Source of the DNA: Escherichia coli
GTDB lineage: Bacteria > Pseudomonadota > Gammaproteobacteria > Enterobacterales > Enterobacteriaceae
Assembly (NCBI RefSeq): GCF_003334335.1
Contig: NZ_QOWQ01000207.1
Direction: 5' to 3' (one strand)
DNA length: 353 nt
How positions within the stretch are numbered: position 1 is the first letter of the stretch; each line of letters begins with the position of its first letter. Shown here piece after piece: positions 1 through 353 of the stretch. A model generated the notes under the pieces. It did not search any database. It was not told where the DNA came from and saw only the letters and a list, made by a program, of their open reading frames with translations. The position numbers were made by a program, and so were the translations under genes.

Positions 1-353
1 AACGGACTGTACGCCGTCCAGATATGGAATGTGATGGAGCGCGGCGGCGGAATTTCATTATCCGCGGCGCTGAAAAACGTCAGACCGTCGCGGGTCCACA
101 TCCCCGTGTTTTCACAGATCCACCGCCCGTTGCTCTGGTCAAGCTCAGACTGATGGATCACGCAGCCATGATGTTCACAGAGGTAGAAAACGCTTTCGGG
201 GCTGTCCTTCTCCCATTTAAGGCCAAAAGGCGTGGACTCATCGCCAAATTTCAGATACTGCGCCTCCCCACAGTGCGGGCAGGGCACATAAAAACGCATG
301 AAATGCGCCGACTCGTTGGCCGCTTTTTCGATCTGGCAGGAGCCTTTTATTTT
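1..353 (-). CDS. Phage terminase large subunit, lambda gpA family (homolog of lambda gene A product); internal fragment, partial at both ends
   Basis: Minus-strand frame with codons at 353-351, 350-348 ... 5-3 is open for all 117 codons. The translation contains blocks that I recognise from lambda gpA: CQIE(K/R)AA.ES.HFMRF, CPHCGE.QYLKFGD, TPFGLKW, SVFYLCEH, TRDG, and the C-terminal block TFHIWTAYSP. Plus-strand frames 1 and 2 have stops at 151-153 (tga) and 32-34 (tga). Plus-strand frame 3 is also open but is the exact antisense register of the coding frame. The match to lambda gpA is from memory, not a computed alignment. Confidence 0.93.
162..281 (-). other. Cys cluster C-x2-C-x30-C-x4-C inside the terminase CDS (CPHC ... 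CEHHGC); candidate zinc-ribbon-like metal-binding motif
   Basis: Cysteine codons read directly from the sequence: 279-281 (gca, rc tgc), 270-272 (aca, rc tgt), 177-179 (aca, rc tgt) and 162-164 (gca, rc tgc). The spacing gives CPHC, then 30 residues, then CEHHGC. The same spacing appears in lambda gpA as I recall it (CPHCGEEQYLKFG ... YLCEHNAC). Metal binding is inferred from the pattern, not demonstrated. Confidence 0.45.

Follow-up and report, generated by a model that had tools for sequence, protein, structure and literature searches.

A 353-base window of Escherichia coli DNA assigned to the large terminase gene of a lambdoid, phage 21-type prophage

Features of the window

The window, by which we mean the whole 353-base stretch of Escherichia coli DNA analysed here, has a G+C content of 54% and carries on its minus strand a frame (frame 0, window 353..3; ORF translation) that runs through 117 complete codons without a stop. 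The peptide of 117 amino acids encoded by this frame is KIKGSCQIEKAANESAHFMRFYVPCPHCGEAQYLKFGDESTPFGLKWEKDSPESVFYLCEHHGCVIHQSELDQSNGRWICENTGMWTRDGLTFFSAADNEIPPPRSITFHIWTAYSP. Genes with 100% nucleotide identity to the window are intact and annotated as WP_047340609.1 / WP_021565185.1. In the 642-codon gene, window positions 353..3 correspond to codons 216–332 and bases 2..1 to positions 1 and 2 of codon 333 (Phe); residues 216–332 span 34–52% of the 642-residue large terminase (TerL). We assigned the following features, which are given in window coordinates except where a position is marked L001, the locus in APEC O18 that contains an exact match.

1..353, minus strand: internal fragment of the coding sequence (CDS) of a large terminase (TerL, gpA family), assigned from the open frame, the 100% nucleotide match to annotated genes and the alignments with lambda gpA and phage 21 gp2.
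123..353, minus strand: C-terminal third of the GpA_ATPase (PF05876) match, residues 216–292, from Pfam searches with the peptide and with the whole protein.
42..284, minus strand: equivalent of lambda gpA residues 239–319, a beta-rich insertion, from PMC10810279 and the ungapped lambda alignment.
270..281, minus strand: first cysteine knuckle, CPHC (Cys240 and Cys243), from the sequence, with both cysteines invariant in 13 of 13 proteins.
162..179, minus strand: second cysteine knuckle, CEHHGC (Cys274 and Cys279), from the sequence, with Cys274 invariant in 13 of 13 proteins.
3..35, minus strand: ITFHIWTAYSP, residues 322–332, the block most conserved with lambda; it is the start of GpA_nuclease and overlaps the proposed start of the lid (W327).
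3..353 (L001 19874–20548 in the full locus), plus strand: open frame antisense to terL with 117 codons inside the window, extending to 224 codons in the full locus; we do not regard it as a gene.

The coding signal of the minus-strand frame is clear, because the nucleotide differences from phage 21 are biased toward third codon positions (22 of 32) and the changed codons show a synonymous excess. In the terL frame, 19 of these codons are synonymous and 10 non-synonymous, while the ratios in the other two sense frames are 3:26 and 6:23. In the comparison with lambda A, third positions hold 61 of the 110 nucleotide differences. We take these substitution patterns to indicate that the terL frame of the window is under purifying selection.

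Identity of the encoded protein

The initial annotation had placed the window inside a gpA-family large terminase gene, and Pfam GpA_ATPase, PHROGs and the alignment to lambda gpA agree on this assignment. Both of the searches that it had proposed as checks, the lambda gpA comparison and the Pfam profile search, gave significant matches. Lambda gpA (NP_040581.1) aligned with the window peptide in one ungapped alignment over residues 216–332, in which 81 of 117 residues were identical (69%; E = 3e-62, BLASTP). The GpA_ATPase model matched the 117-residue peptide alone at E = 5e-16, with peptide positions 2–78 falling on model positions 175–247 of 247, and the peptide fell into terminase-large-subunit families of PHROGs at E about 4e-56. 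In a tblastn search, relatives were found in 256 phage records, whose hosts included Escherichia, Pseudomonas, Ralstonia, Vibrio, Rhodobacter, Wolbachia and Xanthomonas, among others.

The full-length gene identical to the window extends this picture. GpA_ATPase (PF05876) covers residues 47–292 (E = 9.1e-55) and GpA_nuclease (PF20454) residues 322–600 (E = 4.6e-70) of its product; only the first 11 residues of the nuclease match lie inside the window, and the rest is inferred for the window's own gene from the 100% identity. Aligned with lambda gpA, the full 642-residue product of this gene has 66% identity over 639 amino acids with 5 gap positions. Relative to lambda gpA, the full gene keeps the Walker A sequence KSARVGY, the YDE Walker B/catalytic Glu179 and the GST motif, all of which lie outside the window.

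Some details of the lambda comparison needed adjustment. The window had been described as collinear with the middle third of lambda gpA; the alignment is indeed collinear and ungapped, but residues 216–332 of 642 make up the first part of that third. The long blocks of identity with lambda gpA that the initial annotation had described are real but of moderate length, with runs of 5–10 residues (TFHIWTAYSP, SVFYLCEH, QYLKFGD, TPFGLKW and CPHCGE). Among named relatives, the closest is phage 21 gp2 (91% amino acid and 90.9% nucleotide identity) and not lambda gpA. By sequence comparison, we place the window gene on the phage 21 gp2 branch of the gpA family and not with lambda proper.

Every sequence-level defining feature of the gpA family that we tested was found. 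NCBIfam held no model matching TerL or TerS of the exact-match locus, and a phmmer search of the PDB with the full TerL gave no sequence relative at E up to 0.01; the putative functions of this TerL in translocation and cos cleavage therefore rest on homology to lambda and phage 21. The gene and its family are already known, as are the mechanism and the genomic context: all of this is textbook material and annotated in RefSeq. The description of the family as well studied rather than as a novel system was thus correct, and the gene was already annotated publicly.

Position of the window within the domains of TerL

The alignment of the window with lambda gpA is ungapped, and lambda numbering therefore carries over to the window. 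In lambda, Walker A is KSA-R79-VGYS and Walker B is VAGYD with the catalytic Glu179 (PMC6379665). AlphaFold models of lambda TerL delimit the ATPase domain as residues 29–366 (PMC10810279), and a lid subdomain has been proposed at residues 327–364 (PMC6379665, Table 1). A beta-structural insertion at lambda gpA residues 239–319 is present in gpA-type ATPase domains and absent from HK97 TerL (PMC10810279).

The first residue encoded by the window lies two positions beyond the GST motif (residues 212–214). Judging from the motif positions, the catalytic motifs all lie outside it, with Walker A/B, Glu179 and GST upstream and the nuclease downstream. The window encodes the end of the ATPase core, the whole of the beta-rich insertion with four cysteines, and the first residues of the lid or linker. 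The Pfam GpA_nuclease match starts at residue 322 and the structural ATPase domain runs to residue 366, so that the two boundaries differ by about 45 residues.

In an AlphaFold2 model of the fragment, the insertion region was mostly beta strands, with block pLDDT values of 89–96; comparison of this model with solved structures gave no significant fold match. To our knowledge, the lambda-type gpA terminase still has no experimental structure, although it is very well studied.

Gene order and the predicted cos site

We examined a context of 40 kb around three 100% matches, in APEC O18, B1172 and NCTC9112. At all three loci, terL is 1929 bp long, lies on the minus strand in the orientation of the window and has the same neighbours. 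The initial annotation had expected a Nu1-like small terminase gene and cos to the right of the window, upstream of this minus-strand gene, and connector and portal genes to the left, and each was located on the side where it had been expected. On the right, a 169-codon terS lies directly to the right of the window in all three genomes (L001 20970–21479, minus strand) and overlaps terL by 29 bases; the C-terminal half of its product is 40–46% identical to phage 21 gp1 and lambda Nu1.

An exact copy of the lambda/21 cohesive-end sequence, GGGCGGCGACCT, is located at L001 21664–21675 on the minus strand. Its distance from terS, on the upstream side, is about 185 bp, and the window lies about 1.3 kb to its left. 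The number of matches to GGGCGGCGACCT expected by chance in 40 kb, with at most 1 mismatch, is 0.16. The sequence at the exact-match locus is the same as bases 1–12 of phage 21. We predict from the sequence that this copy of GGGCGGCGACCT upstream of terS is cosN.

To the left of the window, downstream of terL, the first gene at all three loci is a W-like head-tail joining gene of 68 codons, whose product matches the NCBIfam phage_HTJ equivalog (50.2 bits; cut-off 33). Farther leftward, this gene is followed by genes for the portal, an S49 protease, the decoration protein, the major capsid protein, FI, FII-like and Z/U/V/G/T proteins, the tape measure and further tail proteins. Farther to the right of terS are lysis genes, the Q antiterminator gene, RusA, replication genes and repressor-type HTH genes. 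The early region of NCTC9112 differs from that of APEC O18 and B1172, suggesting that the structural module circulates among mosaic lambdoid prophages. Considering these results together, we regard the window as almost certainly an internal piece of terL (lambda A/phage 21 gene 2 family) from a lambdoid, cos-packaging E. coli prophage.

The prophage also contains genes that resemble cargo. Three tRNA genes (Arg, Arg and Ile) lie in the late region at L001 27878–28127 (minus strand), flanked by genes for a DNA methyltransferase and a SASA-family esterase. Further genes of this kind include queH, hokD, dicB and a lom/ail family gene.

Matches in E. coli genomes and phage records

A megablast search of 5426 complete E. 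coli genomes found the window with 100% identity in six chromosomes, and about 50 further genomes matched it at 99% or better. At a threshold of at least 80% identity, it was present in 1868 of the 5426 genomes, with a median of two copies per positive genome. The annotation of the E. coli genome matches was always phage terminase large subunit.

The exact window sequence was seen only in chromosomal prophages, the best match in the phage collection being 98% identical. By megablast, the best matches in that collection were the E. coli lambdoid phages PhiR12_1 and relatives (98%) and PhiR5_1 (97%), followed by phage 21 and relatives (90.9%). Lambda was absent from the megablast matches in the phage collection; the ungapped nucleotide identity between lambda A and the window is 68.8%. 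All 21 near-identical matches in the collection are Escherichia lambdoid phages, the complete genomes being 43–54 kb long and four partial records 1.6–8.1 kb.

Several records carry unexpected labels. Ten records labelled 'plasmid' also carry the terminase segment; most of them are non-mobilizable and between 150 kb and 1.4 Mb in size (for example CP061244.1, 1.41 Mb, and CP088669.1, 730 kb). These copies are probably chromosomal fragments misfiled as plasmids rather than phage-plasmids. 'Campylobacter phage CJLB-4' (MW057783.1, 48,361 bp) has a gpA segment that is 69.2% identical to the window, which is the lambda level, at the position expected for lambda; the record may stem from contamination with lambda, or be mislabelled, and not derive from a Campylobacter phage at all.

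Xanthomonas phage NR08 (OQ055246.1 29268–35375; match at 3001–3108) gave a weak tblastn match to window residues 50–85 (52.8% over 36 amino acids, E = 8e-4). The match is mostly intergenic and lies a short way upstream of an 'HNH homing endonuclease' gene. The same stretch of the record also contains a 'mobile element protein' and a TEM beta-lactamase, a combination that suggests contamination from a vector or from the assembly. Given the mostly intergenic DNA and the TEM beta-lactamase in the record, we treated the NR08 match as chance or artefact and not as a genuine relative.

State of the host prophage and alternative explanations

The annotations report a frameshift in the portal gene of APEC O18 (L001 17290–18883) and in that of NCTC9112 (L005 17292–18883). 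In APEC O18, a 4.3-kb 'tape measure' gene (L001 6632–10936) abuts lom, the tail genes M/L/K/I/J are apparently deleted or fused, and there are several tail-fibre pseudogenes. The initial annotation had named stop codons in the frame as a possible sign of a pseudogene; there are none across the 117 codons, and terL is intact in APEC O18, B1172 and NCTC9112. This prophage is in decay in some of its copies, which nevertheless keep an intact terL.

The window could likewise come from a cryptic, decaying prophage, a fossil rather than a live phage, in which terL is intact yet unused for virions. The frameshifted portal at two of the three exact-match loci fits such an origin, as do the truncated tail region and tail-fibre pseudogenes of APEC O18; single-base frameshift calls, however, may be sequencing errors. 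On the other side, the annotation of B1172, another exact match, shows the structural module intact from Nu1 to J; a segment with 98% identity is found in sequenced phages whose listed hosts are E. coli K-12 and C (PhiR12_1 and relatives); and the selection indicated on the terL frame also argues against disuse. We consider a cryptic origin a real possibility while leaning against it. This alternative bears on the state of the host element and not on what the window encodes. As to the earlier wording 'phage or prophage', the lambdoid prophage context bears it out, and 353 bases cannot narrow it down to a functional phage.

Some satellites and gene transfer agents (GTAs) encode their own large terminase. 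The terminase gene might accordingly belong to a phage satellite, such as a capsid-forming PICI, or to a GTA, and Rhodobacter phages are indeed found among the distant relatives of the window peptide. However, each of the three exact-match loci is a lambdoid prophage, and genes for head, tail, lysis, Q, replication and immunity functions were all seen in the 40 kb inspected. The tail genes V, G, T and H are present at all three and M/L/K/I/J at two of the three; none of these loci is a small island without its own tail genes. The 21 near-identical matches in the phage collection are likewise all records of Escherichia lambdoid phages. A satellite or GTA origin is thus very improbable. The initial annotation had favoured a phage or prophage over a satellite, and the 40-kb context, with its head, tail, lysis, Q, replication and repressor-type genes, upholds that choice for the terL assignment.

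The plus-strand frame antisense to terL could in principle be a real overlapping gene, since it has no stop across the whole window, extends in the full locus to 224 codons starting at GTG, and is also open in phage 21. Such openness is nevertheless what the coding strand would produce: when terL was shuffled by synonymous codons, 99.9% of trials left at least 117 codons open in a row on the antisense strand, and 20% reached the observed whole-gene antisense maximum of 287. Of the codons that differ from phage 21 when read in the antisense frame, 3 are synonymous and 26 non-synonymous, the pattern of an unselected frame, and in lambda a stop falls inside the window-equivalent region. The frame had no match in PHROGs and was unannotated in all three exact-match records inspected. 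We ruled out the antisense ORF as a gene on the basis of the shuffles, the substitution pattern, the lambda stop and the blank PHROGs result, and regard it as a by-product of the coding strand; the probability that it is a gene is negligible. Equally negligible is the chance that a non-coding feature (a structured RNA, repeat or regulatory site) outweighs the CDS in the window, as no Rfam family matched it on either strand at E up to 1 and the substitutions fit a protein-coding frame.

A conserved four-cysteine element in the insertion

The part of the terL product encoded by the window contains two pairs of cysteines within the insertion. We aligned 13 gpA-family proteins from ten host genera, in which members beyond the lambda/21 group are 28–57% identical to the window-type protein. 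Across these proteins, the first knuckle takes the forms CPHC, CQHC or CPDC and is followed by 24–43 residues and then by C-x2-6-C. The partner of Cys274 comes 2–6 residues later in all 13, as CxxC in six, CxxxxC in six and CxxxxxC in one. In composition-matched shuffles, the cysteine pattern recurred in 0–7% of trials per sequence.

On the basis of this motif, the four cysteines probably bind a structural zinc ion. Their pattern is that of a zinc-ribbon signature, and the element is possibly a zinc ribbon. A further step would be to regard the insertion (lambda gpA 239–319) as an uncharacterised, true zinc-ribbon module with a role specific to gpA-type cos terminases; we hold this stronger proposal to be rather unlikely. 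Candidate roles of such a module could be contact with cosN DNA, separation of the cohesive ends or assembly of the terminase ring.

The searchable literature held no description of a zinc site in gpA; older subscription papers lay outside this search, and an earlier mention is possible. Literature matches for terminase zinc concerned only herpesvirus terminase subunits or unrelated proteins. The paper describing the insertion mentions neither metal binding nor a function for it, nor the word 'zinc' (PMC10810279).

Proposed role and significance

By analogy with lambda biology, this TerL would join a dimer of the small subunit to form a terminase protomer, and protomers would assemble at cos on concatemeric DNA. 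The C-terminal nuclease domain would then nick cosN to give the 12-base cohesive ends. TerL would dock on the portal, and its N-terminal ASCE ATPase domain would translocate DNA into the procapsid.

The window matters as a positional anchor, since it marks its source as carrying a lambda/21-type prophage with cos about 1.3 kb to the right and the head and tail genes leftward. Any cargo of interest would sit elsewhere in the prophage. The four-cysteine element is the only thread possibly worth further work, and would be a small, testable addition to what is known of a well-studied enzyme.

Comparison with known systems

HK97 TerL (PDB 6z6d) is the closest solved structure to lambda TerL, and it shares the two-domain layout of ASCE ATPase and RNase-H-like nuclease as well as cos packaging (PMC10810279). 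It differs in lacking the beta-rich insertion that makes up most of the window, and it has no sequence similarity detectable by phmmer against the PDB.

Lambda gpA (TERL_LAMBD, NP_040581.1) is much closer: 639 of 642 residues are collinear at 66% identity, rising to 69% without gaps in the window. It likewise has Walker A, Walker B/Glu179, GST, the four cysteines and FHIWTAYSP, and lambda has the same Nu1-A-W-B gene order as the three exact-match loci. Lambda differs in belonging to another branch of the family, with 68.8% nucleotide identity in the window and no megablast match, and its Nu1 is similar to the 169-residue TerS in the C-terminal half only (46%).

The phages PhiR12_1, _2, _4 and _5 and PhiR5_1 (PV340549 and others) are 97–98% identical to the window in nucleotides and 99% in amino acids, and their gene is annotated as 'terminase DNA packaging protein A'. 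The records list E. coli K-12 and C as hosts, and their segments are not identical to the window.

Phage 21 gp2 (OL657228, M81255) is 91% identical in amino acids and 90.9% in nucleotides in the window, and 93% in amino acids over residues 17–642. It is of equal length (642 amino acids), and phage 21 has the same gene order and 12-base cohesive-end sequence. The two differ in the N-terminal region of TerL, where about 60 residues diverge (L001 20819–20998 at the exact-match locus). Phage 21 gp1 and the 169-residue TerS are alike only in the C-terminal approximately 100 residues (40%), the N-terminal DNA-binding half having no detectable similarity. Lambda genetics places the contact with the small subunit in the N-terminal region of TerL. 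The joint divergence of the TerS N-terminal half and the TerL N-terminus suggests that this prophage has a cosB/TerS specificity that differs from those of both lambda and phage 21, acting on an identical cosN.
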